Source of the DNA: Pseudovirgaria hyperparasitica
Lineage: Eukaryota
Length of the DNA: 64,000 nucleotides
Direction: 5' to 3' (one strand)
Assembly: GCA_010093815.1 (NCBI GenBank)
Contig: ML996571.1
How positions within the stretch are numbered: the first letter of the stretch is position 1; each line of letters begins with the position of its first letter. Below, piece by piece: positions 3,101 to 29,750 of this stretch. The translations under genes and the position numbers were made by a program. The notes below the pieces were generated by a model. It was given only the letters and a program-made list of their open reading frames with translations, was not told the DNA's origin and made no database searches.

Positions 3101-5450
3101 CTATCCGTGACTATATACTACTATTTACGTCGCTCGTTACGGAGAACCTTATCTCGTTATCTTCTCGCCTCTCTCTATTTATTCTATACTTTAGGTGTGC
3201 GGTTATAGTATACGCGTGTGTATAATCTCCGGACTTCTCGCCTATGCTCTTGCACTTAAGGTATGCTTTTCGGGTCTAGGGGTCTATACATTCGGTACGG
3301 CACGTGTTTATCTCTTGCTCCCTAGTACGCCTATAGGAGTGTATTCACGGCCTGGTCGATGGCCGGGCCTCTAGTTCGGAGTTAGATAACTCCTATAGGT
3401 TCGACGTGCCCTATACTATTAGGCCCTGCTCCTGTTTTCGCCTTATCTTATCCCCTCTAGGCTTATACCTCCGGCTCTACTAGGAGAGGTGACCGAAGCC
3501 TCTCCTAGCTAGGTAACTACGAGGTTTACTCCTTAAACTTATAATACTAGCGTACGTGCCTTATGGGCGACACGTTCTATCTCTTTATAAATCGATACAC
3601 GCATCCGTTCTCTCGGGCTATATAGTAGTCTCTCCGGCCAGGACGTAATCCTATCTACTTCTAGATATACTAAGAGTTAGAGCCTATTAAAGGGGTAAGG
3701 TCCTTAGAGCCAGTAGTTACTACTATATACCACGCCCCGCCTTTAAGTATTACTACTTTTCGGTTTCGCGTTACCTATAAGAATCTCTCTATAATAGGCC
3801 GACCGTATCTTATAGGAGAGTATCCTCTAAATCCCTTACGTATATACGCCTAGGCGACTTAGGCATTCTCTTTCTACTAACCCGACTTATTTCTACTACT
3901 CTTAAAGGGTCCCTATAGCTGCCTCCTACCTATGTCTATATACTATTATCTATGTACTCTAGTATCCCACCTCCTACGGTAGACTATAACATCTCTCGTG
4001 CGTGGGAGCCACTCTATCTATTAGTAGTAAAGTAGTATCTTATATCGAGCGAAAGGTCTTAATAGAGTCGTGCTACTAGTAGTTGTACTAGGCGGCTTAA
4101 TAAACGTAGTTTAATACTATAGGAGAGTTAGCTTTAATAAGTTCTTCTAGTAGTAGTTTCTTAGTTGCCCTCGACGTGTTCCTTACGTTCCTAGAGCCGT
4201 TTAAGCCTTAAGGTGTCCTATCGCGCTACTAGGACCTCCGCTTCCTCTACCTAGTTAGTAAGATAGATTTAGGCCTGCTTTCGACATAGTAGTAGCGCGT
4301 TAGATGGTTTTCTTATCCCTTTATCCTCGTGAACTTCTCTTAACGCGTTAATTAGGGATAGAATAGAAGTATATACTTCCCTAGCTAGATTATATTAGCG
4401 TGGTTTAGTAAGGTAGACGCTCCGCAAAAACTCTTTAACTATCTATCTAGCGACGACTAGGTCGCCATTAACGCCGCTCCGAACCTCTTGCTACCTCTAT
4501 AGAGGCATTGTCTAGCTACGACGACGTGGACGCGGTTCGTAAGACTTCGTAGCCCTTTAGAGTAGTATAATAACTACTTATATATAATATTAGATTTTAG
4601 TATAAAAAGGTTAGAGGGTATAGTAGAAGTCTATTTAAGGATAGTAGTTAATTTATTATATACTATATTCGAAATACTAAACTAATTCGTCTATATTATA
4701 AGGCGCTCTATAAACTTACTATCGAATTAACTAAATCGGGCCTACTAAATTAGTTACTACTATAAATCTAGACTACATATACTTACGTTAGACGGATTAT
4801 CACGTCTACTCTAGTCTACTATAATATATATACCGCTCTCTTCTTTGAACGTTTTCGTTAAATATATAGTATTAGACGCCCTTATCGCCATAGACATAGC
4901 ATTTCTACTATATATATTAGACTAATTTACTAAATCGGTACTATAGCTACTAGTAACGCCGTCTATAGATTCTAGGTCTAAAATAGGATTAGAGAATATA
5001 GTAGTATCTTTATATAGGGCCGTATTAGTAGTAGAAGTACCTAATTCTATAGACTAGAACTTCTAATTAACGCTTAATAGCTAAATACTAATAGAGTAAA
5101 CTAAAGAGTTCTATTAACTAATATAACTACGAGTACTAAAGCCGCGCTATAACCCGGTCGATAGTAGTAGCCACGGGCCTAATAGTTATAATAATAATAG
5201 TAATACGGTAAGCCGTGCTTATCTATATAGTTCCGAGTTATAGTACCTACGGATTATATAGTATATACTACTAATCTTTCTACTATAGTATTAGTAGGAG
5301 ACTACGGCCTATAGTATCTCGAGGTATAGTTACTATAAAGGAAAAATACTATAGTATAATTATTAGTAGATAGTAATAATATAGTATACGGTAGATATTC
5401 TAGGCGTATACTAGAAGAAGTTAGGTGTAAGCCTATTAAAAGCCTAATAT
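128..5450 (-). pseudogene. Plavaka-family (CMC/EnSpm-related) transposase, N-terminal half, RIP-inactivated and interrupted by a LINE at 601-4552
   Basis: De-RIPed minus-strand reading gives YWYRDPLTLVEFLL, GNRVYSE..TADGWW and IIVPIILSSDKTNLTNYGGDRVAWPVYLSI.NL (about 540-240), typical Plavaka (PF18759-like) motifs. A possible C2H2 finger lies near 5300-5230. The start position is approximate. Confidence 0.85.
601..4552 (-). mobile_element. Tad-like LINE, RIP-mutated, apparently internally deleted
   Basis: RT motif VGYADD at about 2185-2165; C-terminal C..C..H..C knuckle near 1130-1080; (TTA)n tail. Direct repeat CCCTTTAGAGTAGTATAATAA at 580-600 and 4553-4573 is the TSD, with some overlap with the tail. 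Confidence 0.9.
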
Positions 5451-5649: not shown

Positions 5650-7729
5650 ATAGCTAATAAAAATATCTACTAATCTCTTATATATCTTCTCTATAGGACC
5701 TCTAACACGGAAGACGATTAAGGAACTATCTAGCTACCGTAGCGGTAATACTAATAGAAGATAATCTAGTAACTATAGTAAACTAAACGAGATAGATAAA
5801 TAAAGATATAATATAACGTAGACACGTATTAGTATTAATAATAGGGACTTATATAATAGCCATTAATATAAAAAACGTATATATATACACCTAGCTCATC
5901 TCGACGCGTTTGTTTATCTACTAATAACCTAGTAGTCTAGGTATACCGGTAGCAAATATAGTAGTAACGCCCTATATAGCTTAGACGTTACGGTAATATC
6001 CTACTATAATAGTAACTAGGGATATAACGGCCTTACGTCCTCTTCTCTATTATATTAGCTATCTAGCTTAATAGAAAAAGATAGAGAAATAGTAGTAGAG
6101 AGGGAACTAACTATCCGTAAAAAGAGGCGGTTCTATAGAGATAGTCTCTAGTCTTATAAACGAGACCGGTACCTTATAATAACTAAGATTTTAATTACTA
6201 TAACGTTTTTAGGCCGGTTACTACCGGTATTTAATTATCTTAATATATGGCTAGATAGTAGTCTAGATAGTTTTAGGATACTAGTATAATTAGCCTAGAT
6301 AGCCGCTAGAGATATTAATCTTAGTAGCTACTACCTTAATTATAATTTATAAAATATATCTCCTATCTATGTTATTACGCTAGTAAAGGAAGATATAATA
6401 GACTTCCGTTACTAACTCCTCTCTAGAGTTAGATAGATAGTATCTAAATACTAGGACTAGAAGATAGTCAAGAAGAGAAAAGCTAGTATAAGTAACCTAA
6501 TATATAATAACGCGTATATAGAAGTAAAGGTATATTACTTATATTATATTAGATATATTACTAATTATTAGTATAATACTAGCGTAACTTAGAAAATGTT
6601 CGTAGGGCTAGTAGTAATTAAGGCTCTAAAGTTAGTTCTACTATAGTCCCTAAGATTCCTTAGATTAAAGGAGTACTATAGTAGTATATTCCGACTAATT
6701 CTACTATCTATAATTACCATTATATATATTATAATAAGGCATGCCCTTAATAAATATAGTAGCGGGTAGGCGCTAAACTCGTCCTTTAGTCGCTATAGAT
6801 TTACACGCTCTCTACTAATACTAGGTATATATATATATCTTTATCTAATTGCCTACTAAATTATATAGAGGAATAGCAAGTACTAAGCCTAATATAGTCG
6901 AACTAGGCGCCCTACTATATTAACTATATTTAAAAATCGCTAATAGTATTAGTATTCGTAGTACTAATACTAATTAACCTAGATACTATATATATAAACC
7001 TATATAAAGATAACCTAGATAACTTCTCTAAAGTAGATATAGATAACTTAGATAAGAGTAAGGAGTCTAAGCTATCGGGTAATATAAGTATATACTAAAG
7101 TTATAGAAGCTATATAGATACTAACTACTATAAAAAGGATAAGTCGGATACTCTAAACTAGTTAGATAAGTACCTCAAATCATCTTATACGCCATTAGAT
7201 ATAGGTAAGAGTTCTACACTACTAGTAGTAGCTATAGATAAGATTATACTATCTTAGGTATTAAGTATAGACCCGCTCTAAGTAACTACAAGAACGGTAA
7301 ATAATAGTATATATACGTATAGTATAAATAAGTCTATTACTAACTTATTATCCCTAGTTATAGCTACCTTAACTAGTAGTCTATCTACCCTAACTAATAC
7401 TTAAATTAAAATAAAGTTAGATAGTAGCGGACGTTTAAGTTAGGTCTTTAACCTATATATAAAGAGTATATACTTTTAAGAGAAGTCGGATATTAGTATA
7501 TAACTAGGGAACTATATAGACTACCATAAGACTAAATAGATAATATAAGAGAGAATAAAAATAGTAACTAGAAATATAGAGGGAAGTGTCTAGTAGGAGA
7601 AAAGGTTATTAAAGGTAGTTCTAGATAAGAACACCTTTTAATAGATAAAGGACACCGCCTAAAGATAGAAGAAAGGAAGGTCTACTATATTTTATTATAG
7701 CTATATAGTCGGAGAGAGCTTAGAATAGT
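5650..7729 (+). pseudogene. Unknown RIP-destroyed gene, divergent from the Plavaka transposase and truncated by the LTR at 7730
   Basis: Long frame broken only by TAG/TAA RIP-type stops (e.g. SSLIEKDREIVVERELTIRKKRRF near 6062), with an intron-like stretch near 6530-6575. No family recognised; limits approximate. Confidence 0.4.
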
Positions 7730-8029
7730 TATTAGGACTTAGCCTTAGGTAGAACCCGACCTACACGTACCTTAGCTAACAGGGTTAGGAGGTAACGTAA
7801 AGGGCGGTAAACAGTTACGTACTAGATAGATCGGCGTCCCTTTATATATATACTCTTAGATTTCTACTAAAAGGGTTCGGTAGTAATTCGTTCTATAATA
7901 GAATACACCCTATTATTCTATCTAACTATACTACTATCTAATAACCCTATTCTTATATTCGAATTACTCCCTATATAGTACTATAGTTAAGATAGTCTAA
8001 CTAGAACCAAGAAGGTCAACACGATCTAC

Positions 8030-9305
8030 TATAGAAATAAGTAATACTACATTAAATAATAGGGATCCTCTATAATTAGTATTAATCCTAGCCGTTTCTA
8101 ACCAAGAAGTAGAAATATTAGACTAAATCACGGAGCTTTTAGATAAAGAAATAGTAGATATACTAAGTAACTTCTAATAATATAAAGCCGGATAACGAGT
8201 TATGGCGGAGCCACATGAGGTATTATAATAAACTATTACCGAACTTTAGAAATACGTCGCGAATTAGGCTTAAGAGATTTAAACTATTAAAGAATAGATA
8301 GAACGCGCGAAACTCCTCGTAAAGAGACGAGAACTTAAGAAGTCTCTTAAAGAACTACGCCGAACGATAGTAGATAGATAACTCCCTATACTAATTTAGG
8401 CGGAATTAGTTCACCTACCATTAGAGTTATAATAATCTACCGTATACCCGGCCGCTTCGTTACCGATTTACCCTACTCCTTCCTTAGATATACTAAAATC
8501 TAAAGACCCGACTATATTTATAGAGAAGAACTAAAAGGAGTAGAAAGACTAGAAGAGAGACTACGAAAAGTACTTCCTTAATAACCCTCTACTCTTTTTT
8601 ACTAAAGTATAATATATTTCGTTCGGAGAACGATACCTAGGCTTATAATCCTATGATTAATAGAATAGATAGAAGGAAGTATAGCTACTATCTACGATAA
8701 CCTAGGAATATTTAGCTATATTTATACTAAACACCCTCGGAACGGATAGAGAACGTGAAAGAAAGGCACTATCTAAGTTAAGAAGCGTGGTATAACGATC
8801 GAACTAGACACCTACTTAACTACTATAATACCTCTAAAACCTATAGGATAATATCCCTACGCTATAGAAAAATATTTATATATTCTAGTTTCGCGAAGTA
8901 CTACTTCCGTTAATCCACGAAAGACTAGGAATAGTATTATTAAGTTTTAACTATCTATATAAATTAGAGGAGAAAGCTAATGAATACTACCGCATCCTTA
9001 AGGAACGCGGCTCTCTAGGTAAAACCGACGAACCCTATACGGGTTAGAAATAAGGTCGATCGAATACGTTCGATCAAGAGTAACCTTACCGCGATTAGCG
9101 CTAGAAGAGCGTAAATTAGGGTAGAAACGCGTTAAGAGGACACCGAAATAATTAAGGCGGTACTTCTTAACGCGGAAAAGTATAAGGCATAGGCTTAAAT
9201 ATAACGCCTATCGTAAAATAGTAGGATTATAGCGCACTTCGTTACTATAAGTATAGAGAAATAGAATATATTTCGCCTAACTATAAGAATCCGAAAAAAG
9301 AATAG
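8030..9305 (+). pseudogene. gag: gag of element B
   Basis: De-RIPed CCHC knuckle RCYKCGEIEHISPNC at about 9240-9285, then an A-rich slippery run (CCG AAA AAA GAA TAG) with pol in the -1 frame. Start approximate. Confidence 0.8.
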
Positions 9306-12300
9306 GCTAGTACACAAGACCTAACCGCGTTCTTAGCTAAATTATATATACTTAGAAGGAGCCATAGCGCCTTCCGGCGAGTAAAGACCTAATATTACTA
9401 AAAGTATCGTTATCTATAGTAAATGGTAATAAAACTATATAGGCCCTCGTGGACACTAGTATAGAAGATAACTATATTTTATTAATTCTCGTAAAGGAGT
9501 ATAGATTATCGTATAATCTCGGTAAAGTTAGCCGAACCATTATAGTTAATAGACATAAAGTTAGAACTTTAGGCAAAGCTATAACGAATTACGAAGTTCA
9601 TGACTCGAAGATAATAAAATAGTAGATGTCTAATAAATTCATTATGGCTAATATTAGCTAATAGAATATGATTCTAGGGATGCCTTAGCTTAGACGCCTA
9701 AACTCTATCCTTGATTTTTAGAAGGAGACATTAACGTTCTAATAATACTATAGTAAATTATACTAGTAAGTTATAACTATTAGTAAGGAGGCATAGAACC
9801 TCGCCGTGCGGACCCGATTATCGCTAATCTATCTTGCGTTCTTATCGATTATCGATAAAGACAAGGACGATAGTAATAATTAGGGCGAAGACACGCTACC
9901 TAACGTATATTCGTAGTATACAGATATATTTTCGGTAGAAGATACGTTACTTCTCCCTAATTACAGGCCGTATAAGCTAAAGATTAAGCTCGAAGAGGGA
10001 GTAGATATCCCTTATAGTCTACTTTACCTACTTTCGAGACTAGAACTCGAAGTTCTTTATAAATATATTAAAGAATACCTCGAAAGAGGCTAGATATATT
10101 ATAGTACGTTATTAGCCGGCGTACCTATTCTCTTCGTGAAGAAGAAAGACGGAAGTTTACGCCTATACATTAACTATCAGGTACTAAATACGGTAACTAA
10201 GAAGAATCGTTATCTATTACCGCTAGTTAGTAAATCTTTATACTAATTAACGAAGGCAAAGTACTTTACGAAGCTAGATTTACGAGATATATATTACCGG
10301 CTTTAAATTTGTTACGGAGATAAGTAGAAAACCGCATTTCGGACTAGATATAGTTATTTTAAGTATACTATTATACCATTTAGGCTAATAAATGCGCTAG
10401 AAGCGTTTTAAGGATATATTAATACTATACTCGTAGGATTACTTAACGTGATTTACGTAGTTTATCTTAATAATATACTAATTTACTCCGATAGCATGTA
10501 GAATCATAAAGAACACGTGAAATCGGTACTAAATCGTCTAAGGTAGTATAAACTCTACGTAAAATTATCTAAATGCGAGTTTCACTAATAAGAAGTTAGG
10601 TTTCTCGGCTTTATTATGATATATAGCGGCCTAAAAATGGAGCCGGAGCGTGTAAAGACTATCATGGAATGGCTAGAACCTACTACTATATATTAAATTA
10701 GAACATTTATAGGTTTCGTGAACTATTATTATAAATTTATTATAGGCTTCTTATGAATTACGGCGCCGCTTAATAAACTCATAGAGAATAGCGGTAAAAT
10801 CTCTATAGGTAGGCGAGCATAGCGTAAAGCTAAGTCGGTCGAGATATAGTTAACGCCGGAAGCGCGAGATACGTTCCGATCGTTAAAGAATTACTTTATA
10901 ACTACGCCGATTCTTAGGTATTTTAATTCTAAGAAGTATATTTAGGTTAAAACTAATACGTTAGAATTTATAATTACTAGAATTATTAGTTAACTATATA
11001 AAGATATAAAAGATAAGGTATAATAGCACCTGGTCGCTTTCTTTTCCCGTAAAATAGCGGATATAGAGACGCGTTATAATACGCATGACTAGGAACTACT
11101 CGTAATCGTTAAGAGTTTTAAGTAATAGTAATATTATTTAGAAGGCTCCGTATATTAGATCGAATTATTATTAGATTATATAAATCTACGTTACTTTATA
11201 TTAACTAAGGTTCTTAATTACTAATAAGTACGTTAGGCTAAGTAGATGTTAATATTTAACTTTAAAATCTTATATAAAGCTAGAAGAGAGAATAAAGCTA
11301 ATCCTCTATCGCGGCGTGAAGATTATAAGAAATCGTTATAGAATAACATAGATAGTTAGTATAAGTTAGACTATACTATACTTTAGATACTATAAGACTA
11401 GTTATCTAATAGAATACTAGAAGCTAGGACACTTTCGGCGATTCTCTACGGGAATTAGAGCGGGTATTAAGTAATCTAAATAAACGTCTAAGAAACTAAG
11501 AAAACCCTCGAAGACTTAATTAAATCTACCTAGAATTCCGATATATTAGTAAAGAAAGTCATAAGCATGAAAGGAAGCGCTATAGATCCGCCGTAGTTAT
11601 TAAGGTAGGAACGATAATCGGACGCGATCTACTTCCAAGGCCGACTCTATATACCGGAAGGCGGCTTACGAATTAATGTTTTAAGGGAATAGCACGATTA
11701 CGTGTTAGTAGGGCACTTTAGCGTTATAAGGACGGTCGATTTAATCCGAAGGACGTATGACTAGCTAGGTCTTTATAAATATATAAAAGACTACGTAAAA
11801 ACGTATAACGTTTACCAGTATACGAAAGTATATAGACACTTACTATATAGCGAATTAAGGCCATTACCTATGCTAAAGGAGGCATGGAAGGAATTATCGA
11901 TGGATTTTATTATAGATCTACCCCTAAGTAAGTATTCTAGGTACATTTATAATAGTTTACTCGTAGTTCTAGATAGATTTATAAAGATGTTATACTATAT
12001 CCCTATGAGGAAGACGATCTAAGTACTAGATCTTATAGATATACTACTCCGTAACGTAGTTCGGCTCTATAGTATACTAAACGGTATAGTTTCGGATAGA
12101 GGTCCGTAGATAACATCTAAATTTTAGAAGGATTTCTACTATACGCTAGAAATTAAGCGGAAACTTAGTACTATATTCTATCTATAAATAGATAGGTAGA
12201 CGGAGTAGTAGAATTAGATAGTCGAGGTGTATTTACGCGTATATTATAACTATAAGTAGGATAACTAGGTAAGGTTAGTCTATGTTGCGGAATTCGCGTA

Positions 12301-13060
12301 TAATAATAGCCGATATACGTTAACCTACGTGAGTCCGTTCGAAGTAAACTTCGGTTAGAACTATAATACGTAGTTCTTAGGGACTTAGTTCAAAGTAGAA
12401 CGACCTAACGTTAAAGTAATAGAAATTACTATAGAACTATTCTAAACGTAAAGAAGCGTTATAAAGTTACTATAAGATGCTATAAATTATAGTAAATCGC
12501 ACTATAATAAGGGTAGAAAACCTATAATCTATAATATTAGGGATAAAGTTTTACTAAATAGTAAGAATATTCATAGTATTAGGCTAAAGAAGAAGCTTAA
12601 CTATATAATAATAGGTCTATATAAGATTACTCGTATAATCAATGACTAGGTATACGAGTTATAACTCCCTCCTACGTTAAAGATATATAATATATTCTAT
12701 ATTACGCTTCTTAAGCTATTTCATGCCTTATTATTACCGGATCGTTCCGAATAGATACTATATAAAGTAGTTACGTAAGAAGGTATAGATATCTACGAAG
12801 TTAAGTAGATACTTAGCTAGTAACGCGCCGAAGATGGCACGTGGCTATATAAGATTCGTTAGAAAGAATATAATCCTAATAAAGATACTTAGGAACCTGT
12901 AATAAACATTAGTAAAGTAGCGATATTAGTATATAAGTAGCGATTAGCAAAGGAAGCCGCGGAATCGTAGAGAATTATACTAAAGCACGGTGATTTAACA
13001 GTTTTTAGTATAGTTTAGCGCTAAGGACGGCCGCCTAAAAGGAAGAAGGTGAAAGAGATA
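9299..13060 (+). pseudogene. pol: pol of element B (protease-RT-RNase H-integrase-chromodomain)
   Basis: De-RIPed ALVDTG (~9443), VVYLDDILIYS (~10457), VETDASEF (~10946), integrase HH..CC (~11690-11820) and chromodomain YEVEQIL..YKIRWK.Y...DTWEP (~12790-12900). Confidence 0.92.
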
Positions 13061-13429
13061 TAGATCTTTAAAACATTCTAAGGAATTAAGGAACTTCCTT
13101 AGAAAGTTCGAACTTAGAACTTTAAAAAATTTAACTAAAAAAAAGACTTAGAAAAATAATTTACTAAGAGAAATAGACATCAAAAATCAGTGCCAATCAG
13201 TATAGATCAGTATAGATTACTAAAGAGATTAAAGAAGTTATTATTAAAGAAAGATGAAATTAAGAAAGCTAAAAGAAAATATAAAGATCTATATAGATCT
13301 ATATAAACTCGTACTAATCTATCTAGAAGAAGTAAGATCGCTTTAAAATTAAAACCAAAAAACTAAAAACGCTAGATAAAAGAGATATATTATTACCGAT
13401 CGGTATAGATCCAAACCGATTAAGTCGGA

Positions 13430-14470
13430 GTAGGAGTAGAAGTACTAATTACCGTGATGGTTATATCCAATTCCTTTCGCTGGTTCTTATTTAGCATAGT
13501 ATAGAGCTTTATAATATAAGTCTCTAGCCTTTCGTTCCGACGCTATAAATTCTATATAGCGCGCCTTATAGCTATAAACTTCTCTATAGAAACCTACGGA
13601 GCGGTAGAACCCGGGACGGAGAGGGATAGACCGGCGCGGGCACGCTAAGAATTATATAAATTAGCGAAAAGATTTAACGATCGGTATAGAACCACATACC
13701 TTTAGTATAGAAACTTCTAGATTAGAGCTATCTTCTCTAAATTTACGGCTCTTTAGCACGCGCGAGAAAGGAACCTTAGCCTTTTTACTAGAACCTTTTC
13801 TAGGAATTCTAATATCGCCGGTATATAGAAAGAAGTCCGAAGTGGTAGAGATTTTAGCACTATTATAGAGATTAATATATATTAGTAAGAATCTATAACG
13901 ATTTAAGAAAAACGATATTACCTAGTAATCGCGGTAATAATAGCTATAGTAGATTCCGATAAATCCTTACGGATCTTATTAGAATCGTACTCCTAGGCGT
14001 AACCCTTGCCTTAGGTATATAGCTCGTAGAAAGCCTTCTCTAAGGTGTTACGATCGGTAGTACCACGCTCCTTATTAGTAAGGGTTACTAGAGGCCTAGT
14101 AGTAATCTATATTAATATAAGTAAATCTACGTAAAGTTCTTCGAACTTACTTAAATACCTATAAGTAATGACGCTTCTTAGTCATGTAAGTGCCGTATAT
14201 TATAGATTTAGTACTACCGTGAGTAATATACGACGGAAAGCGACAACTATAATAATATATAGCTAGATTATTAGAGCCCGGCCTAGGTCGGGGTAGATTA
14301 ATAGCTTTCGATATGTCGGTAACGTATACGAGATAGGGATTATTCGAAGGCGCCTATTTCCGCGCTAATTACTTTAGAGTATCGAGATTTCGGGAAACTA
14401 TATTAAGATTATTATTAATTTATGCAGATTATTACGAATTATGTTATTACTAGCTAAGGACGGCACGAAA
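13430..14470 (-). pseudogene. Spliced antisense accessory gene inside element B, with a six-cysteine (Zn-cluster-like) motif
   Basis: Several short GT..AG introns on the minus strand, e.g. 14158-14107. De-RIPed exon reads PCLVC...GCRF...TCGTCMTKKRHCLQ. Five of the six Cys are inferred from TAT/TAC codons; limits approximate. Confidence 0.6.
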
Positions 14471-15394
14471 ATTAGTAAATTACGTAAATCGCACTAAATT
14501 ATAGTAAATCTACATAAATCTATATCTATAAGGATCGGGTAATATACCTAATGATCTAAAAAACTCTATAAAGAGTTAAGAAGTTTTTTAAAGAAAGGAA
14601 TATTTCTAAGAAAAGATTTTAATATAGGTAGCACCCGGGCTTACCTAATTACATTACGTGATACGCTAGGCCTAATTAGATAATCTCACCTATATAAGAA
14701 GTTAAGATAGATAAAATCTAGTTTATTAGGAAAACGCTTATGTAAATCTTAGATCAGCGAATATTAGTAAGTATCTAAGACGAAGCGTAGAGAACGACTA
14801 AGGTCTTGCGAGACTTAGGATGGGGATATAGAGATAGATAATGATCTAGGTTACTAAGGGCAGCTTCCTAGAGGGAAGGGATAATTATTAGGACTTAGCC
14901 TTAGGTAGGACCCGACCTATATATACCTTAGCTAATAGGGTTAGGAGGTGACGTGAAGGGCGGTAAATAGTTACGTGCTAGATAGATCGGCGTCCCTTTA
15001 TATATATACTCTCGGATTCCTACTAAAAGGGTTCGGTAGTAATTCGTTCTATAATAGAATACACCCCATTGTTCTATCTAACTACACTACTATCCAATAA
15101 CCCTATTCTTACAAAAGTTCTAGCCTATATATCTATCTATAATAGAGTCGTTAACTATACTAATTATTATATAGTATTATAGGCTATATAGAGTACTAGA
15201 GTATTAGTATTATATACTAATAGTAGCTTACGTAAGTACTATCCGCGTTTAGCTTTATATATTATAGATTTTCTAGAGTAGGTACTTATTATAGGTATAT
15301 TCTATTAGTATATATATCTAATATATATAGTCTCTAGTAATAGACGATAGTATCTACGAGAAGCTATTACTAGTATATAGAAGTTCTATATATA

Positions 15395-16603
15395 TGTTAG
15401 GCACGTGCCTACTAGTTAATTATACATGTATATAGTAGTTATATATAAGTAGTATACTCCACCCTTAAAGTAGTAGCTTTAAGATTCGATCCTTTTAGTA
15501 TAGTTAGTTAGTACGTAGAGCCCGCCTTCTTATATAATCTTAAAGCTACTATGGGGTTACGGGTTTAACTCTCGGTCTAGTTAACTATTATTTAATTTTT
15601 ATACGATTCCGTTTAGCTTACTACGTTATATATACTTTATATATATAACGGATAACATAGTAGTAATGTTACTACGGTAAGTTAGCGTGTCTAGTACTAG
15701 AGGCGGTATTACGAATATTAATTATATGTATATGTATAAGGAGGCGGGCTCCACGCACCAACCAACTATACTAAAAGGACCGAATCTTAAAGCTACTGCT
15801 TTAAGGGTGGAGCACACTACTTATATATAACTACTACATATATATAGAATTAACTAGTAGGCCACGTACTCCTCACGTGCCTAATATTATCCCCCTTTTC
15901 AAAGGCACGTGTCCTTACACGTCATGGGTATACTACCTTACGAAAGATAAACTAAACTAGCCGCAACGGGCCTAGTATAAACCATATATATACATAACTA
16001 ATACTCGTAATGCCGCCTCTAGCACTAGACACGCTAACTTACCATAGTAACGTTACTACCATGTTATCCGTTATATATATAAAGTATATATAACGTGGCA
16101 AGCTAAACGGAATCGTGCGAAATTTAATAACGGTTAACTAGACCGAGAGTTAAACCCGTGACCCCGTAGTAGCTTTAAGATTATATAAGGAGGCGGGCTC
16201 CACGCACTAACTAACTATACTAAAAGGACCGAATCTTAAAGCTACTACTTTAAGGGTGGAGCACACTGCTTATATACGACTACTATACACATATAGAATT
16301 AACTGGCAGGCCACGTGCTCCTCACGTGCCTAACAATATGGTTTATACTAGGCCTAGTGTAGCTAGCGCGTATACTAGGCCTATTATAGCTAGTTTAGTT
16401 TATCTTTCGTAAGGTAGATGTCTATAACGCGTAAACGCACGCGCCTTCGAAAAGAGGAGATATTATTAGGCACGTGCCTACTAGTTAATTATACATGTAT
16501 ATAGTAGTCGTATATAAGTAGTATGCTCTACCCTTAAAGCAGTAGCTTTAAGATTCGGTTCTTTTGGTATAGTTAGTTAGTACGTGGAGCCCGCCTCCTT
16601 ATA
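15395..16603 (+). mobile_element. TRIM (non-autonomous miniature LTR retrotransposon), host of a nested copy
   Basis: 140-bp LTRs at 15395-15534 and 16464-16603; TSD ATATA (15390-15394 and 16604-16608); PPT GAAAAGAGGAGA before the 3' LTR; non-coding interior of about 330 bp. Confidence 0.92.
15735..16335 (-). mobile_element. TRIM of the same family, nested in the opposite orientation
   Basis: 152-bp LTRs at 15735-15886 and 16184-16335, both carrying the same small CACGTG-containing duplication; TSD ATATG (15730-15734 and 16336-16340). Confidence 0.93.
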
Positions 16604-19019
16604 ATATACTCATTATTATAGAAATAGGTTTACTATATATATTGCAAGTTAATAACTAATAGCTACGGTAGTAAGTATACTAGTAGTAAGATAGATAATA
16701 GAACGAGTATACCCGGTATCTTATCGTTTTTATCGACGTCTTTCGCGCTAGTAGTATAGGGCTATTATATTTACTAATTAGTTAAGAGTTGGTATTCTAG
16801 TAGATGGATAGAGCTATTAGATAATTTTACCTAGTTACTTACTAGAGTTAATATATACCGCGCGGTCGCTCCGGATATTCTATATTAACTATATAAGGGT
16901 ATATTAGAATATACTTTTAATTAGATAGTCTTATATATTATTAATTAAGAGCGTATAGGATATAGATTAAAGGGTATATTTACTAGTATACCCTCTATAG
17001 AAGGAGTAAAGAAGGTAATCGATAAGTAATTTACGTCTATTAGAGTATTCGGTTGTTATAACCTACTTACGTATATAACTTTAGTAATATAATAGATAGG
17101 GGTAATATTTAAGCGTATACTAGTAGTATTTATAGTTACGTTTAAACCACTCCTATATTATAATTAATACTTTCTAAGCGTAGTGCGGGCAGTTATTAAT
17201 ATATATATATTAGCGGCGTACTATACGTATAATACATAGATACTAGTATACTTAGAAGAGGCTATATTACGCTTAGATAACCTAAAATACTAGTTTATAC
17301 TATATCGTAGAGATAAATTAGAGGATAATTATTTTAACTTTCTAAAGTTCTATATATTGTCGTACCTAGTTAATACCATTAAATACTATAGTTCGTTATA
17401 TCTAATATTAGTAGAGCTACTAGAGTAATCTTATATTATAGTAAAGGAATTATATTAAGGTTTAAATAAGAGGGAGACGTTTCTATAGTAGATGCTAGTA
17501 GTAGATATATACACGATAAATACTAAAATCTCTAGTAGTATAGAGGTGGCGGCTAGTACTAGTATATTAGTGGCCCCTAGCCTAGAGTAGCTCGATAATA
17601 CACGTAAGCTAGTTGGCTAGCGGCGTATTCTAAAGGAGCCACGCTAGAGTAAATATATACTCTATGTCTTATAGAGTTATAGACTATCTACGTCCTACTA
17701 GACTACTATTAGTAACCTCTATAATATATATAGTAGTAGTTTTATATTACTTAATGCGGTTACACCCTTTATATATAACTATTATAATCGGCTTATTAGG
17801 GATAATATATTAAAAGAAGTAAATATTAAATATATTAAAAAGGACCCTTCGTAGGCACGGGTCCTTCCTATCTATATATATAAGACTATATATATACTAA
17901 TATAACTAGATAGAGATATATCTATAGAGGCCTTCGACCTAATTCGGGTAAGGTATACCCGTAACTAGTAAAAGAGTAGTAAGGCTAGGGAGGATTATAT
18001 AATAGTATAGGAGTTTAATAAGGGTAGTAACCACCTTAACGGAAAGCGGGTTAGTAAAGTCTATATATTTCTAGAGGTATATAATATAGAGAGCATTAAT
18101 ATAACTAGTAGTATAGTAGCGCGATTTCTAGATACGTTAGTTAAACTACTTAATAACTTAGATAGAGGTAATATTAATACTATTAGTGGCCTTATACTAT
18201 TACGTATAGCGGGTTAAAGGTCTAGTAATAAGACTTATATAATAGATAGGTTCCGTGTCTACGAGCTAGAGTATATCCTACGCCCTATATAGATTATATT
18301 ATATTAGTTAGTTACGGATAGTTTATTCTAGTTAAACACGTATAGTAATTAGGGGATCTATAATAAGAGATATAACCTAGACTTCTAGGCTATAAATAGA
18401 TGAAACGTGACCGTAGCGTTAAAACACGGGTGCGTGTTATAAGTCTATCGCTATCTACTACTACCTACCGTAGTATACCGGTATATACTAGTATATAGCG
18501 GAAGTTATAGTTTATATATAGTAGTACTCGATAGTCGTATCCTATACTAGGATATCTCTAAGAAATAATCGTGGTTTATTACGATCGGTTCTATAAAAGG
18601 CTTATATTTAATAGCTATCTATAATTTTAGCCAAGGAGTATCTAGGGATGCACCTCCTTATTACCTAATAATTACTAGCTAGTATAAAAACTCTACGCCT
18701 CTAAAAGGGGTATATAGAACTTAAAGAATCCTTATTCATAGATAGAACTAGATATAGATAGTATTAACCTAATATAGATAGATTATATATATTAATACCC
18801 TAAAATCCAAACTATGTCTCTAGGCCTACTAGACCTAGCTTGCACCTAATTCTAATATTTTTATTATTTACGTTTACGCCTTATTAGATACCGGGTATAT
18901 AACGAGTCTATAGTTAAGTAAGTGTTAGGTACGTAACGAGTCTATTAATAAATAAGTGCCGGGTATATAACGAGTCTATGTAAATAAGTATAAATAAGTA
19001 TATACCGGGTATGTAACGC

Positions 19020-20400
19020 TCTTACTAGGGAAACGTCTTCCTTAAGTATCTTCCCCTTCTAATATTTCTCCTTCTCTTTCTTTATTCTTTCTCTAGTCTT
19101 ATAAGTATAGTTAGACTTATATTACTATATTATTAATATATATATTCTTATATAGACTATTAGAAACTACGGTAACTAGATATACGTTCTTATAATAGAT
19201 AAATATACTATACTAATATATTACATTATTCGTGTTTAATATAAGGGTTTACTACTATAATTATTTATTATTACGCTTGTCTATCTCTTCTTAACGATAG
19301 TACTAATTAATAGCGACCTATTATAGAGATAATAGTTAGTATTATATACTTCTCTTAAATATTCGTATATTAATATTATATAAGTATATACTTTGTAGAG
19401 GTCCTCTATTCTTCCCTTAAGCTACCTAGACTATTCTCTAATTGCTAAAAACTCTTATATCTAACTATTTCTACTATTTATTTCTTAGTTCTACTTATTA
19501 GGCTTTAAATAATAGTAAACTATAATAGATTAGTAGTTATCTATATTTTACGTACGCTAAGTTAGTATACCTAAATATAATAGATAATAGTATATTTATA
19601 ATAGTATATACTAGATCTTATAGTATTCCTCTTTAGTAGTAGATCTATATAGTTATAAAGACGGCCTACTATCCTATTATATCTATATACTATACTACTC
19701 TTTTATTATATATAGACGTTATTACTAGAGTAGGGCTATTGTCTATTATTGTAAGGAGGCGGGCTCCACGCACCAACCAACTATACTAAAAGGACCGAAT
19801 CTTGAAGCTACTGCTTCAAGGGTGGAGCACACTACTTATATACGACTACTACACACATGTAGAATTAACTAGCAGGCCACGTGCCTAATAATATCTCCCC
19901 TTTTTGAAGGCGCGTGTCCTCACGCGTCGTAGGCATGCTACCTTACAAAAGATAAACTAAACTAGCCGTAACGGGCCTAGTATAAACGATGTGCATACAT
20001 AACTAATACTCGCAATGCCGCCTCTAGTACTAGATACGCTAACTTACCATAGTAATATTACTACCATGTTATCCGTCACGTGTATAAAGTATATATAACG
20101 TGGTAAGCTAAACGGAATCGTGCGAAATTCAATAATGGTTAACTAGACCGAGAGTTAAACCCGTGACCCCATAGTAGCTTTAAGATTATATAAGGAGGCG
20201 GGCTCTATATACCAACCAACTATACTAAAAGGACCGAATCTTAAAGCTACTACTTTAAGGGTGGAGTACACTACTTATATACGACTACTATATACATGTA
20301 GAATCAACTAGTAGGCCACGTGCCTGACAATTATACTTAACGTTATATATAGAGTATTATATATTTAACGTCGTTATTTCACGTGCTCTATGTTAGTACG
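19020..20400 (-). pseudogene. Possible unknown RIP-destroyed gene, interrupted by the TRIM at 19750-20329
   Basis: Minus strand looks coding, with a basic (K/R-rich) end near 19030-19100. No motif recognised. Confidence 0.25.
19750..20329 (-). mobile_element. TRIM, third copy (580 bp)
   Basis: 141-bp LTRs at 19750-19890 and 20189-20329 with TG...CA outer ends; TSD ATTAT (19745-19749 and 20330-20334); minus-strand PPT AAAAAGGGGAGA next to 19891. Confidence 0.95.
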
Positions 20401-21890: not shown

Positions 21891-22725
21891 GCTACTATCC
21901 CGCCTACTCTACCCGTTAATATTAATATACTAGTAATTATAACCTAATCGCCTTATAAATTAATATATAATGCCGGTACGCTCGAGAGTTTAAGCGAACG
22001 TATAAAAGTATAAAGAGTAAAGACGTAGGATAGTAGTCTAACAGTTCATAGAGAGACATAGGAATGTATTTATAGAGTAATCTTACTCTTATACAAGGTT
22101 AATTCCTAACGAGTAGGAATCGGTTTATACGGTCTACTTATATAGTAACCTCGCTTAACTTAGCTAACTTAACCCAGCTCTAGCCACTACGTGGCTATAT
22201 AGATTAGAATAGTCTATATAGGTCTATTATAGTTCCCGTCCTAATAATATCCTTCTTCTTTTTATACTTCGCCCCGAAGTACTTAAGTATATATAATTCT
22301 AAGTCTCTATAATCTATCGTGTATCTATATATCCGTAACTAAGTTCCTATAACGTTATAACTATCCTTAATATAGGTAAACTCGAGATTCTAGTTTACTT
22401 TTACTAGTTTATGCACGCGCTTATCCCTTACTTCGTGGCTACTACCTAGGATATATAATTACTACTTTAGTCGAGTATATATTTAGCTTTACTCACCTTT
22501 AATTTTATTCTCTAGTATATCCACCTCGCTCTTAAGGTAAGTCGTTAATTCATATACTATCTTCTCTAGTCTAGGTTTAGAAGGGTCTATAGTAGTCTAT
22601 TCTTATTAGAACCGGTCTAATATAACCTATCCGCGTTATTATAGTCACTAATTTAGCTTCGTTAATCGCCGTTAAGGGTAGACGAATATTCCTTTCTTAG
22701 ATCTCTAGCTAACGTGTATATATAG

Positions 22726-24100
22726 ATATCTAATACTAGTTCTATCTCTAAGCCTACCTCCTCCTCTCGTAAGACTCGCTCTAAAGATATCGCCTCCTCC
22801 CCGGCTACGCCGGCTAAGAAGCCTACCTATCGCGGTAGTATAAAGGCGCGCTCTAAGTCGGAGAAGAGAGTAGCTAGAGCTACTACTACTACTACCTCTA
22901 CTACTAATATAGCTACTAGTCGCTCTAATCTAGGTGATTCTAGTACTAAACTTATAGATAAAGTGGTTATAGGTTCTCCTCTTACTCTAAAGCACACGCC
23001 GTCTACTCTACCTCCTCTAGAGGATAAAGAAGATCTTATTATAGACGATAATTGCGAGCCCTCGCGCTTACCTATACCACCGTCTCGCCGCTCTTCCTTC
23101 CGGTCTAATATAGACTAATTTAGTCGCTCTAGGTTCTTTTAGGACCTTAATATTCGCTCTAAACCCTAGTCTACTAATAATAAGGCCTAGGTCGCCGAGG
23201 ATACTAAACGTAGTCGCGGTTTACGCCATAGGAAAACGGCGAACTACGGTTCGATATACTATAAGTATATTAAGGGCTATACGGCCGGCTCTAAATATCT
23301 CTTTCGCTCTAACTCTAGTATTAGCTACTACTCTACTAACCGCGACGGGCCTATATACTCTACCTTTACTCTACCTACCTACTACCGCTACTATACTATA
23401 ACTAGTAAGACTTATCTATAGGTAAGTATAATAGGCTATCTTAATCTAGTATAATCTAAAGTAGTCCGCGCTAATATATTCTTAGGTTCCTATGCGTATA
23501 TAAGATATATATAACGATCTTCGCGTCCGCGAGACCCTCGGGGGTTCTTATAGCCGCCTATCTACTATATAGAGGGAGTTTAGAGAGTACTATAAGCTCT
23601 TCCTAGAGGTTATTAAAGTATAAGTTACGAGCACGTTAATTATTTTTAACACCTATTAATTTTTCTAGCCGCCGCGAGATCCCTAGCGCCTAGACTACCT
23701 ATTCTAGGGAGTCTATTCTAGCTATAGAGGCCGTAGAGAGGATTCGCTCTATCCCCCCCCGTCCGTCTCGCGCTACTAATAGATCTTATAAGAGGTCTAC
23801 TATTTCTCCCTCTAAGTCGCCTTATAAGAGGGTATATATTCCCTTCTAGATTATTCTAGATTATATTAGCTAACTTTAGACCTAGTCGCTACGCTCCGGC
23901 GCTTAAGGCTCTTCCCTCTAGGCTCTAATAGATCGGGTTATTACTCTAGAGGCTAAGGTCGTCGTTCTCCGCCGCTATATCGTGTAGTTAGAGAGGACTA
24001 TACTAGAGATTAGGACGGATAATAAGATAGAGAAGTAGCTCTATGGTTCTGGCTCTATGTATTAGCTCTATGCCTAGCTCTATATATTCTAGATCTACTA
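22726..24100 (+). pseudogene. Spliced antisense accessory gene inside element C, with a six-cysteine (Zn-cluster-like) motif
   Basis: Ser/Pro/Ala-rich N-terminus, then de-RIPed C.KC...GC...ACYRC.....KTCLQ (23257-23421). It is followed by intron GTAAGT..GCTAAT..TAG (23422-23485) and further introns. All Cys are inferred from TAT/TAC. Confidence 0.6.
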
Positions 24101-24569
24101 TAGGTGGTGCGCGCCGGCTCTATTTACCTGGCTTTTATCTATTTTAGTTCTTTTTAGACCGTTTAGATACCCGTTAGCTAGTTTCTAGTAATTTAATTCT
24201 TAACTTAATAATATTATATGTGCGCTCGCTTAGCTTATAACTATCGGTTTCTATATTCTAATTTTCCTTAAGTTATCTAAGTGTGGGCACCGTATATAAA
24301 TTAGTTTATCTCTATAAATTCTATTAGAGTACCTAAACTAGTGGCCTAGTAGTTATTAGTTCGGGTACTCTAACCTTTTATATTTCGTGTTAAGAGTTTA
24401 ATTCTATAGTGGGGTACCTTTTTTTAGGTTCTTAGTCCTATATTTTTCTCGTATATAATGGTCTATATTAGTCCATTCTAGACTCTTCTATATTATTCTA
24501 TTATAGTATATCGCGTCGCGTTCCTAAAATGGTTATTTATACTTTCTTCGCGTCTAGTAACTATACGAC

Positions 24570-27500
24570 GCTTAAATTATAGAGCTACTATATAGAGTTT
24601 TCCTAGTGCGCGTCTAGATTTCCTAGTTTAGCACTTTATTCTCTACGGTATTCTTCTTCTTTTTACGACGACCGCGACGTCGCTATACTTACATTAATAA
24701 TATGCTATTCTATATCTTTTACTTATACGCAGCTATTATAGAACTTAAGATATATACCGCTAGTTCCTAGGTGTCCTCGTCCTTAGTATAGTCCTTCTAA
24801 CGGATTCTATATTTCTAAATACCGTCTTTATTAATTCTATGTTTAATAATATAGTCTACTTCGAACACGTCTAGTCTATCTTAGGGTATAATAGAGTATA
24901 ACTATACGTTCGTGCGGCCATACACGTTAGGTCGAAATCTTTCGAGTAGTAAGACGTGGAACACGTTATAGATTCTTATATCACTTCCTAAGTCGAGCTC
25001 GTAGGCTCTTATACTAATACAACGTTTGATTCGGAAGGGACTAGCCATTTTATAATCGAGCTTCTTATTTACTTATAATATTCGTATATTATAGATGTTA
25101 AGAAGGACCTCGTCGCCCTCCTCGTACGTCTAATCCTTAGCTAACCTATTATAGTACTTCGTATACGAGTTATTTACTTATTAGATTATAGCGCGATAGT
25201 TATGTACGGTTTCGAAGATTTTAATCGCTAATTCCTAAGCGTGGACGTTTACGTCTATTATTTGATTAAATTAGACCGTCTAAGGCTTAAAACCTATCCT
25301 TAGACTACGTCCGAGGTTCGCCTAGAAAGGTATAATACCTATTATACTATAACGACTATTATTATATACGAACTCTACTATACTTAGTAGGGAGGCCTAG
25401 TCGTCCTACTTAAAATTATAGAATACGCGTAGGTAGGCCTCGAGCGTCTAGTTCTATCGCTCTATCTAGCTATCCGTCTAAGGATGAAATGCTATAGATA
25501 TATTTCTATTTATACTTACCATTTCATAGAATAACGTCTAGAATTTAGATGTGAAGGTACTTCCTCGGTCCGTAACGATCCTTTTTAGTATACCATAGAC
25601 CTTAATAATCTCGTTCTAGAACACCTACGCTAGTTCTTTAGATATAATCGTCTTCTACACTAGGATATACCTAGATATCTTTATAAGTCTATCCACGATA
25701 ATAAGAATAGAATTATAACTTATTCTAAGTATCTTACTTAGAGATAAGTTAACTATAAAGTCTATAGTAACGTCTTTCTACATAAAGAGGGGGGCTAAAA
25801 GAGGCTATAAATTCCTATATAGCTTGTGCCTAGGGGCCTTCGTTCTTTAATAAATTAGATAAGTAGCTATCTATTCTTCGACGTACTTAGGTATATCTTT
25901 CTAAAAATAGTACTAACGAATTAAGCTTAGGGTATATATATACCTAAAGTGTCCTACTAGGTTAGCGTTATAGTATTAGCTAACTATATTAAATCACGTG
26001 TTATCTATCGGTATATAGTACTTTCTATTATAGTAAAGTAAGCCGTCCACGAAGGTCTACTTATAGTCTACTTTAGTCCGTAATAACCTATCTTACTATA
26101 TTTTACGTAACTTTAAAACTATCGGGTCTATCTTCTATAGATCCACAATTAACTAGGCAAGGTTAATTAGATATTTACGCCGGGTATTATCGCCCTTCCC
26201 GATAGCGCTAATAAACGGCCTACTAGGGACTTCGGTACCGCGTCTTTAGTTACCGGCTTCAGTCTTAGAGATTCAATTACTAGCATCAACGTTAGCATCT
26301 CGCTAATCGCCTAATAACTTAAAATCCAACCTCGTCCTTAAGAGTTAGGCCTATAGCTACTCTAGAACCCTATAGCTACTATAATCCTAGACGCCTTCTT
26401 TATAGTTAGGTCTTCTTAATATTCTATTAGCTAGGTTTATACTTCTAGGTTAATAGTAGATTATAAAGTAAAAGTTCGTAAGCTACTTAGTCTATTAGAC
26501 CTATCGACGGTTTAAAACCGTTATACTTATAAACCCCTTTAAGTTATAGTAATTAGTTAGTAACTCGACGTTATATATAGTACCTTTAAGATAATATCGC
26601 CACTATTTAAACGACTCTACTATTACTAGTAGCTCTTAGTTATAGATAGTATATCTAGTCTTAACATCGACTATTTTACGTGAGAAGAACGTAACTAGAT
26701 ACTATTAGATCTTTTTAGACTTAGTTAGTCTAGGCTAGGAGAGAATATCTAAGATTATAAATTCTAACGCGTCGGTTTCGACGCGGATAGGTTTAGTTAG
26801 ATTAAAGTGTACTAGTAATAGAGTAGTTATAAATGCCTCTTTGATTTTCTCGAAGGAGGCCCTTTTACCTTCTAATAATTCTATAGGCTACGATTTAATA
26901 TTACGCTATTTCTATCTACCGCGGACCGTAATAGACGAATCTATGGTAGTAGTACACGCGTTAAGCGGTGCTACTAGCCGGGAGAAATGCTTAACGAATT
27001 TTCGGTAGTAATTAGCGAATCTAATAAAGACACGTATATCTCGAACCGATTTTAGTTTAGGCTAGTCTATGATAGTAGCGACTCTATCCCTTTCTATAGT
27101 TATACCTTAATTAGTAATAACGAAGCTAAGGAAGTTAACGTGGTCCTAGTGGAACTCGTATTTAGATAGCTTAATATATAGCTTATGTTTTTCTAGCCTA
27201 TCTAGGACTACGTATACGTGCTAGATATGTTCTTCTTTATTATTAGAGAAGATAAGAATATCATCAAGGTATATAATGCACGTCGTGTCGAGTAGGCCTA
27301 CTAGCGCGTTATTAATATACGCTTAGAAGGTTTCTAGCGCGTTAGCTAGTCTAAAAGGGACTACTATATACTTAAAGTATCTATAACAGGTCCTAAACGC
27401 CGTTTTCCACTCATCGCCCTTCTTAATATATAGGCGGTAGTAGACGTCGTATAGATCGAGCTTAGTAAAGATCTTCGCGCGCCCTAGTCTATTAATAGAC

Positions 27501-28400
27501 TTAGAGATAAGAGGTAGTAGGTAATAATTCTTTCGCGTAATATTATTTAGGCTATAGTAGTCGACACATAGACGGAGACTTCTATCCTTCTTCTTTATAA
27601 AGAGGATTAGAGCTCCGGCTAGAGATATACTAGGCCTAATCCATCCTCGCGTAAGGTTCTTTTCGATATATTCTCGGAGGACCTATAGCTCAGGTTCTAA
27701 TAGAGGGTATATAGGTCCGTATAGGGGTTATTAACCGTCTTCGAGGTTAATAGTAAGGTCGGTAGGTTAGTATTAAGGTAATTCGGACGAGTCGATCGCT
27801 AACACGATATATTAGTATATTTTATACTAATATAGTAGGTTTTCGTCCACTTTAATACTAAGCTCTCTATTTTAAGTAAGTAAGAGGACGTAGATAGCGG
27901 AGATTACCTTTTCGTAGTCCTTCTAGAATTATTCGTCGTCGACTAGCTATACTAGGTTCTATTATAGTAGGTATATACGCTAGCCAGCTATTTTCTAGAT
28001 AAAGTCTAGTTTCGGGTTATATTTTTCGAGCTATAGTATACCGAGGATTATATTAAAGGGACTATCTACTACGATAAAGATTAAGTAGTAGGGTTTCCAC
28101 TTCCCCCCGCTATCCTAGATACCGTATTTAATAGTATAGATACCCTACGATTTAATAGAACTATCGATACTATAGAAGGTAGTACCTATTAGTACTTAAA
28201 TGTTAACGTTAAGTTCTCGTACTCGTTAAGTTAATATAACGTTAGTAGCTAAACTACTATTAAGTATTACGGTCTAATATTATCCACGAGGGACCTTAAT
28301 GGGCCTAGCCTATAGTTTAATATACTAGTTAGCTAGTTATCCCTCTATTTTAGTTACGTCTACGAGTCGCGAGGGTTCCTTATAGGTAGTTAGTTTTTTA
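24570..28400 (-). pseudogene. pol: pol of element C (protease-RT-RNase H-integrase-chromodomain)
   Basis: CIIYLDDILIFS intact at about 27281-27246; RVETDAL near 26785; chromodomain VFEVD.II.H..Y.IRWKDY..EDTWE at about 24870-24760. Confidence 0.92.
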
Positions 28401-29750
28401 TATCGTGTACTAGGTAGTTAGGCGCGATATATCCTAGCTACTAGCACTTATAGTATATAACTAACTTAGTATCTATATTAGTATTCGGTGGTTTCCCTAA
28501 GCGGTACTCGGGTACTATATAGCCTATTCTACTATAGGTGTAGTAGGTGACTTTAGGTCGTTTATATAAGTCGTTTCTCGCGTCTTAATATATCGACTAG
28601 TAGAAAGATCCGCGGTACGGGCCTCGTCTTCTCGAGTTCATAGAGTAGTAGCGCCTATAAGGTGTTCCGCGCGATCTATTACTAAACCGGTCCTCTTTAG
28701 ACGATTTTATATTAGATTAGATTAATAGGGATAGTCATGCGCCTATACGACGTTAGTTATTCATTATATGCTAATATCGTTCTATGAGATTCGCGAGTGC
28801 CTAAAGGTTGGTAGAGATAGATATTATAAGGTCGATACGTTCCTTTACGCTTAGGTTAAGGGACCTTTTAAAGTCGTCGTATTATCGAACCATACGATCT
28901 TCCTTAGCTTCTCTCTAAAGAGGTTAGAGGTATTCGAGGAGTTATAACGGGGATTATCTCTCTCGCTATTAAGTCTTAAAGATATGGCTCTAAGCCTATT
29001 CGCGTCGCTCGGCTCTATCGCCGAAGTATTAAAGAAGGAATTCGGTAAACATGTCCTAGTTATACGCATCCTTAGGGTGTTTAATTTAATATACTATCTA
29101 ACGTTTAGATGGCGTTAGGTCTAGGTAGTTCTATACGAACCTAATCTTATTACTATCGTTCGTGAATAGATGGAAGAATTAGCTATACTAGTAAGCCTAT
29201 TTATAAAAGCTCCTTCTGGTTTTACCGTCGAAGTAAGGTAGTTTCTTAGGCTAAGGTAACTAGGATAGTAATAGACTTAGTTAGACTATTTCGGCTTAAG
29301 TTAGTCTATATTAGTATAGGTTAGTTACTACTAGTACTAAAGCGCGTAGTGCGGCTTTAAGTCTAGCGGTTTATCCTTACGCTTCGTTAAGTTTATAAAG
29401 TTACTACTCGAGCTAAGCCTAACGCTACCTCTCCGTGTATAGCTTAGTATATACGTTATTATAAGGCATGGTTAACGTTAGTCGGTTCTAACGAATTAAT
29501 TCGTTAACGTTAATAGGGTCTAGTCTTATAGTAAGGATAGGTCTAGTATAGTATAAACTAGACCGCGATAGAGTATAATAGACTCCTTCCTTATTATCTA
29601 GGTAATCTTCTATAGTTATACGGAATGCTATACTAGTTATTAGTGCGATAGCCTATAGGGTATACTTATTAGTAGAGGTGGTCGTAGAGAGACTATTCTC
29701 TTCGTTTAGATTTAGAGAGAGTCTCTCGTATAAGGTAGTACCACGGGTAT
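28390..29750 (-). pseudogene. gag: gag of element C
   Basis: De-RIPed knuckle CYKCQQPGHIAPNC (~28455-28413), followed by the canonical -1 slippery site A AAA AAC TAA. Start approximate. Confidence 0.8.

Follow-up and report, generated by a model that had tools for sequence, protein, structure and literature searches.

A probable RIP-killed accessory gene on the antisense strand, between pol and the 3' LTR, in a fungal Ty3 chromovirus lineage

Positions 14401-13420 of element B very probably represent a RIP-killed copy of a real accessory gene, carried antisense between pol and the 3' LTR in a lineage of fungal Ty3 chromoviruses, and a dead, lineage-borne accessory gene encoding a protein of ~270 residues is, with good probability, the best explanation of the data as a whole. 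Fungal Ty3 elements are usually described as consisting of gag and pol. The window, meaning the whole 64-kb stretch of DNA analysed (G000:C7:1581552-1645551, in the 35.4 Mb genome G000), is AT-rich, contains nested repeats and has a strong RIP signature across its whole length. The relevant features of element B are as follows.

~7726-15111, plus strand: element B, a RIP-inactivated Ty3/gypsy chromovirus-type LTR retrotransposon of ~7.4 kb (LTR pair and RIP indices)
9827-12979, plus strand: pol of B, with RT, RNase H, integrase and SH3 (Pfam RVT_1, RT_RNaseH, Integrase_H2C2, SH3_Tf2-1)
14882-15111, plus strand: 3' LTR of B, defined by the LTR pair; putative antisense promoter site
14566-14644, minus strand: predicted 5'-UTR intron, 79 nt (donor GTAAGC in 45/53 copies; acceptor TAG in 52 and CAG in 1)
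14454-14547, minus strand: second predicted 5'-UTR intron, 94 nt (donor GT in 41/53; branch-like site; AG at 14454)
14401-13420, minus strand: antisense gene of B, ~270 codons, intron phases 0-2-0, with the two predicted 5'-UTR introns upstream
14159-14401, minus strand: coding exon 1, with start and Cys cluster (ATG and Cys states; 4.0 stops per 100 codons vs 6.4-12.9 in the other frames)
14107-14158, minus strand: phase-0 intron, 52 nt, two codons past the last Cys (donor GTATTT; acceptor AG ending at 14107)
13922-14106, minus strand: coding exon 2, 185 nt (stop density of 3.2 per 100 codons, with all five other frames higher; one fixed stop)
13860-13921, minus strand: predicted phase-2 intron, 62 nt
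13700-13859, minus strand: coding exon 3, Lys/Arg/Ser-rich (0.0 stops per 100 codons in 52 copies)
13645-13699, minus strand: phase-0 intron, 55 nt (donor GTATGT in 17/53; acceptor CAG in 2)
13420-13644, minus strand: last exon, with a heptad (coiled-coil-like) pattern; terminal stop at 13422-13420

Element B has an LTR pair at 7725-7955 and 14881-15111 (92.6% identity by self-BLAST) and the pol order RT, RNase H, integrase that defines Ty3/gypsy elements. Pfam Chromo gives no match in B; the presumed chromodomain region of B aligns by tblastn to the pol of element C, a second family in the window, and PF00385 is present in most of the close pol homologues of B. The pol of C contains RT, RNase H, integrase and SH3 domains (Pfam) and a Chromo match that is below the cut-off (E 2.8e-4; 21.2 bits vs a gathering threshold of 25.1). 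The two pols share 48% and 35% identity in tblastn. The initial annotation held that the B LTR is unrelated to that of C and that B has a minus-strand multi-intron gene in the same place as C; both statements are borne out, since self-BLAST finds no DNA similarity between the LTRs, only pol matching at ~65-70%, and the B gene at 14401-13420 lies behind pol and before the 3' LTR. The 3' regions of B and C likewise give no DNA match in self-BLAST.

22002-30052, minus strand: element C, the other RIPped chromovirus family, with 246-bp LTRs and at least 49 copies
22726-24050, plus strand: antisense gene of C, with an exon at 22726-23421 and a coiled-coil-like last exon; 3' end approximate
23422-23485 (phase 0), 23620-23668 (phase 2) and 23832-23879 (phase 0), plus strand: predicted introns of the C gene

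The families were sampled as at least 53 natural copies of B, from G000, and 49 of C, and Cys states were scored codon by codon across these natural copies (53 B, 49 C; G000). The 53 B and 49 C copies, which were fetched by this region, align across the antisense gene between pol and the 3' LTR, and no un-RIPped B or C copy is present among the G000 copies examined. Matches to C at 73-78% were considered as a separate family and rejected; they are more heavily RIPped C copies. A B-family pol segment adjoining the window (L063:6327-8822) is 98% identical to window positions 8865-11360, with the adjoining part at 92%, a contrast that suggests a recent local duplication or conversion. C copies also have recurrent length variants of 14-65 nt at 24048-24090, just past the last exon of the antisense gene, which are common to several copies.

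The copy of the B gene in the window is dead, having lost its start codon, acquired in-frame stops and kept a single Cys. As the initial annotation stated, exactly one intact Cys codon remains in the minus-strand exon ending at 14159, the TGT at 14245. Its reading of six Cys residues stands in part. Natural copies have Cys codons at six columns, namely 14335 (8/53), 14326 (4/53), 14251 (1/53), 14245 (10/53), 14188 (4/53) and 14167 (2/53), so that the pattern is documented by the copies themselves and the possibility, raised in that annotation, that no Cys pattern would emerge does not apply; however, 14197 is Cys in 0/53 copies (TAC or TAT in 53/53), and the Cys-compatible columns number seven in the B family, as they do in the C family. 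Exon 1 of B thus has the spacing C-x2-C-x24-C-x1-C-x15-(C not seen)-x2-C-x6-C. In C, Cys occurs at 23257 (1/49), 23266 (7/49), 23326 (1/49), 23329 (1/49), 23383 (1/49) and 23413 (4/49), and at 23392 in 0/49 copies. Five of the six positions of the skeleton C-x2-C...C...C-x2-C-x6-8-C are therefore seen as Cys in each family, the sixth being compatible but unseen, and because the unseen position is 14197 in B and 23392 in C, every skeleton position is seen as Cys in at least one family.

This skeleton, with at least five seen Cys, has one match in the six frames of B 13300-14880 and one in the six frames of C 22260-24200; both are antisense and both have a GT two codons past the last Cys. In 500 column shuffles the skeleton arises in 1.2% (B) and 0.6% (C), and skeleton plus GT in 0/500, and two pol controls contain no match to the skeleton. 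The six-Cys pattern was defined post hoc, after inspection of the data, and the independent support for it is thus the un-RIPped relatives described below.

The first intron has the same site in B and C, two codons past the last Cys and in phase 0, in agreement with the initial annotation. The intron at 14158-14107 was placed there directly after a CLQ sequence; frame tests favour the intron, although the inferred Gln codon (14161) is TAG in 53/53 copies and no copy supports Gln. The corresponding codon region of C includes a stop at 23419 in 49/49 copies. The donor GTATTT at 14158 is a weak match to the usual donor, and the initial annotation had named the GTAAGT at 14150 as a possible true donor. 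This site reads GCAAGT in 2/53 B copies, and its T is thus probably a RIP product; a GC donor is possible there, and the resulting 44-nt intron is long enough (relative L109 has an intron of ~43 nt). With 14150 as the donor, the reading frame runs into four stops, each fixed in 53/53 copies, two of them 5-6 codons past the junction, one of which, six codons in, is a TAA/TGA column, and the four fixed stops favour the phase-0 intron at 14158-14107.

The in-frame ATG at 14401 is present in 24/50 B copies and is ATA in the window copy, and the terminal stop at 13422-13420 is TAA in 47/49 and TGA in 2/49. We did not retain a further upstream intron, with its end at 14398, as the site is TGG in 26/53 copies and overlaps the ATG. 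The heptad score of the last exon is matched by 2/300 shuffles (29 and 72 in other frames), and stops are more frequent here than in the best frame of this interval (6.9 vs 1.9 per 100 codons); applied to pol, stop density singles out the correct frame for B and misses it for C (7.0 vs 5.1). For the C gene the ATG is present in 13/48 copies and the last-exon heptad score is matched by 2/300 shuffles. Its second donor is favoured at 23620 over 23618; 23620 is GTAAGT in 8/49 copies, and the phases are 0-2-0 once 23620 is used.

Intact relatives were sought by aligning 20 un-RIPped homologues of B pol, which led to 78 metagenome loci (from the best 80 of 595 confirmed matches). Three of these, L108, L109 and L131, have an antisense exon with six to eight Cys, including all six skeleton positions, that ends two codons past the last Cys at a GT donor. 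The phases 0-2-0 are common to B, C, L108 and L109, and L108 and L109 also have a 5'-UTR intron and heptad last exons (matched by 4/300 and 10/300 shuffles); the gene of L131 is one intron short, with two in all, and gives no heptad signal. Donors and phases of L108 and L109 agree between an automatic intron picker and reading by eye; the picker ranked a model retaining intron 1 first for L109 and chose later acceptors than those chosen by eye for both loci. L186, from a viral collection, has a phase-2 and a phase-0 intron and a last exon that is similarly helical by eye, and its contig ends before the Cys exon.

A quick RT tree of 88 rows places B, C, L108, L109 and L131 together in a clade of 17 rows (SH-aLRT 98) that also holds four named ascomycete pols, from Curvularia, Parastagonospora and two Aspergillus. 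The B and C rows are flagged for odd composition, and their pairing may be an artefact of RIP composition. RTs within this clade are only ~50-65% identical, though antisense position, first-intron site and phases recur among B, C, L108 and L109. That intact elements of the same RT clade carry an equal gene layout favours inheritance within the lineage over chance capture, as the initial annotation proposed. BLAST between the predicted proteins of B, C and their relatives yields no alignment (best E 0.39), with the exception of L109 and L131 (E 0.002), and the case for homology in the B clade is therefore made by where the gene lies and how it is oriented, by its Cys skeleton, and by the site of the first intron and the intron phases.

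The partial motif C-x2-C-x5-7-C was mapped in the tails of 39 of the 78 loci, those in which pol is complete and the tail runs to 1200 nt or more (L154, whose RT is identical to that of L152, was left out). Antisense matches are present in 3/4 loci of B's group, 12/14 of a second clade and 4/21 others, with shuffle expectations of 0.6, 1.1 and 3.2 and sense-strand counts of 0, 2 and 5 respectively. The tail of L112, in B's group, looks interrupted by a RIPped insert.

The second chromovirus clade (L116, L120, L122, L127, L128, L133, L141, L152, L162, L167, L176 and L181) has an antisense gene with canonical or near-canonical Zn2Cys6 spacing and, in some loci, a linker intron, the Cys cluster being followed by basic, coiled-coil-like and acidic stretches. 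This gene appears to be under purifying selection, with dN/dS of 0.15-0.31 in 5/7 pairs; the remaining two pairs, both poorly aligned, give 0.48 and 0.75. Every pair compared belongs to the second clade, and local alignment biases the values downward. Zn_clus matches are sub-threshold in three of the six loci scanned (L120, L162 and L122; 18.8-20.0 vs 21), and L128 has no match. A structure model with pLDDT 72 gives weak fold matches (E 2-10), 4/5 of which are Zn2Cys6 proteins (Leu3, Put3, Pho7), and a PDB sequence search is weak only (Ppr1, E 0.066). The two clades differ in Cys spacing and in where their introns lie, and hhalign finds no match between their profiles (probability 3%); common to both is the order Cys cluster, basic linker, coiled coil.

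Zn(II)2Cys6 domains have six residues between Cys2 and Cys3 and 5-12 between Cys3 and Cys4. The corresponding counts are 24-26 and 15-17 in B, 19-20 and 17-18 in C and 14 and 22 in L109, so that this spacing is found only in the second clade. Pfam Zn_clus has no match in B, C, L108, L109, L131 or the database proteins P0124, P0126 and P0131, and given this and the Cys2-Cys3 loop of 19-26 residues we do not regard the B/C domain as a Zn2Cys6 member. It resembles the Gal4-type family PF00172 (Leu3, Put3, Ppr1, Pho7) in having two C-x2-C pairs, ending in C-x2-C-x5-7-C, followed by a coiled coil, and in having second-clade relatives with canonical spacing and weak sequence and fold matches. It differs in the Cys2-Cys3 loop (19-26 residues in B and C and 14-16 in L109 and L108, vs 6) and in that the B/C proteins have extra Cys, are short and element-encoded, and lack a Pfam match.

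Database searches with the genes of B's clade recover few proteins. The L109 domain model has a pLDDT of 51, too poor to judge its fold, and gives no meaningful fold match, and a PDB sequence search for B's clade returns nothing meaningful. A three-sequence profile searched with HMMER against 1.84 billion proteins has 8 matches, of which six resemble the same Cys exon and the other two (P0127 and P0130) are long and repetitive; the database proteins matching the Cys exon are unspliced gene calls. Used as a protein query, an alignment of 12 B exons from natural copies finds no match among 575 candidates, the L109 exon finds only L109's own unspliced gene call, the same exon has no match in G000, and Atlas searches give only leads below 0.9. 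No host-gene homologue of the antisense gene was found with the queries used.

An extra gene in this position has a precedent in the Boty element of Botrytis, in which brtn lies antisense between pol and the 3' LTR (bioRxiv 10.1101/2021.04.13.439636, PMC4227169, PMC7264820); Boty is likewise described as a fungal Ty3 element with a chromodomain, and the parts of these descriptions available give no domain or function for brtn. The likeness to brtn considered here is one of layout; the six-Cys cluster, the coiled coil and the 0-2-0 phases are features that we read from the sequences of the present elements. Additional antisense 3' ORFs are also reported for the plant Ty3 elements Grande (gene23), RIRE2, Retand and PvRetro13, which are similar in position, orientation and presence in most copies, with an own antisense promoter and nuclear localisation for some (PMC7264820). 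Compared by description, these belong to non-chromovirus lineages, and the available text mentions no Cys cluster (PMC7264820). The same text notes antisense promoters near or within the 3' LTRs of other elements (PMC7264820), and the descriptions available assign no function to the antisense extra genes of Boty and the plant elements. We found no literature description of a Cys-cluster antisense gene in fungal Ty3 elements, and the original description of brtn may already cover the domain; the layout is known from brtn, and the Cys-cluster, coiled-coil, 0-2-0 form may be new.

The predicted protein would comprise a divergent, probably zinc-binding Cys cluster, a helical central part, a stretch that is basic and rich in Ser and Pro and, at the C-terminus, a coiled coil; the Lys/Arg/Ser-rich stretch of exon 3 is a possible nuclear-localisation signal. 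Expression of the gene would require a separate antisense transcript that starts in or close to the 3' LTR, and the B 3' LTR (14882-15111) is the likely location of the promoter. Introns in antisense escape splicing from the sense genomic RNA and so survive reverse transcription; being invisible to the spliceosome on the genomic RNA, they persist through replication. A Cys cluster followed by a basic linker and a coiled coil is suggestive of a nuclear DNA-binding dimer, for which the element's own LTR is the simplest target, and we tentatively propose that the protein is a minimal Gal4-type-like regulator acting in trans on that LTR. Somewhat more speculatively, large fungal chromovirus clades may have an ancient fourth gene, which encodes a Gal4-derived transcription regulator of their own and keeps its introns through its antisense position, with a canonical Zn2Cys6 form in one clade and a long-loop 0-2-0 variant in the ascomycete clade; if true, this would be a retrotransposon counterpart of the accessory trans-regulators of retroviruses and a new zinc-cluster subtype.

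Among the readings that accept the gene as real, the protein could instead be an anti-silencing factor or a cofactor of integration or chromatin, with the Cys cluster serving as a zinc-binding module for protein interaction. The six-residue Cys2-Cys3 loop of Gal4-type domains has a role in DNA contact, and the long variable loop found in its place here, the very fast divergence of the predicted proteins and the L109 domain without a fold match all lend something to such a role; yet the canonical spacing, basic residues and weak Leu3, Put3 and Pho7 fold matches of the second clade, and the domain order common to both clades, speak against it, and on balance we consider a cofactor rather unlikely. 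Less likely again is a mobile 3' module, captured repeatedly from host zinc-cluster genes or swapped between elements and not strictly co-inherited with RT. The gene does occur in two RT clades, with no signal above chance in the clades between, and the two differ in spacing, intron sites and profiles; against this, B's clade keeps position, orientation, first-intron site and phases at ~50-65% RT identity, and the searches made found no host-gene homologue.

It is also conceivable that the antisense RNA is what matters, through self-limiting copy control by double-stranded RNA, the protein being incidental, a possibility raised for antisense extra ORFs in the available text of PMC7264820. Conservation of the Cys skeleton, coiled coil and intron phases, together with second-clade dN/dS well below 1, indicates selection on the protein and makes this very improbable. 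RIP itself creates many Tyr codons as well as pairs of GT and AG, 89/3158 columns over the six frames contain a Cys codon, and the pattern was set post hoc, so the 3' spacer of B might be non-coding and simply over-read. The single antisense match per family with its GT (0/500 shuffles), the run of three exons that each lie in the frame with fewest stops and are joined through predicted introns, the ATG and terminal TGA present in copies and the equal layout in un-RIPped relatives leave this reading the least probable of those considered.

The preferred reading, an accessory gene inherited with its element, has several implications. If a spliced zinc-cluster-like gene is regular in whole clades, the elements may exert control in trans over their own transcription or silencing. 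In that case the function of brtn-like genes could be tested against a specific hypothesis about their domain, and multi-copy zinc-cluster-like genes listed as 'hypothetical' in annotations of fungi may be cargo of such elements.

The window contains further repeats. A third Ty3-type element at 37089-48525 is 11.4 kb long, with 369-bp LTRs, pol on the minus strand and a 3' region of ~3.5 kb; it has no chromodomain match in Pfam, and a scan of its antisense strand for the Cys/Tyr motif plus donor gives no match. A self-complementary motif of ~35 nt recurs at 827, 37602, 44903, 58078 and 59415 within repeats that otherwise have nothing in common (families D17 and D19). A 2-3 kb repeat is present as three diverged copies (73-79%), at 592-3369, 56252-58355 and 59175-62501, two of them mutually inverted, with a 98% copy just beyond the window in L064. 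Short related repeats at 15374-16618 and 19747-20351, in both orientations and 82-93% identical, are MITE-like or solo-LTR-like, and tandem arrays are present at 30878-31235 (18 nt), 35161-35282 (15 nt), 36650-36793 (24 nt) and 49754-50449 (232 nt).
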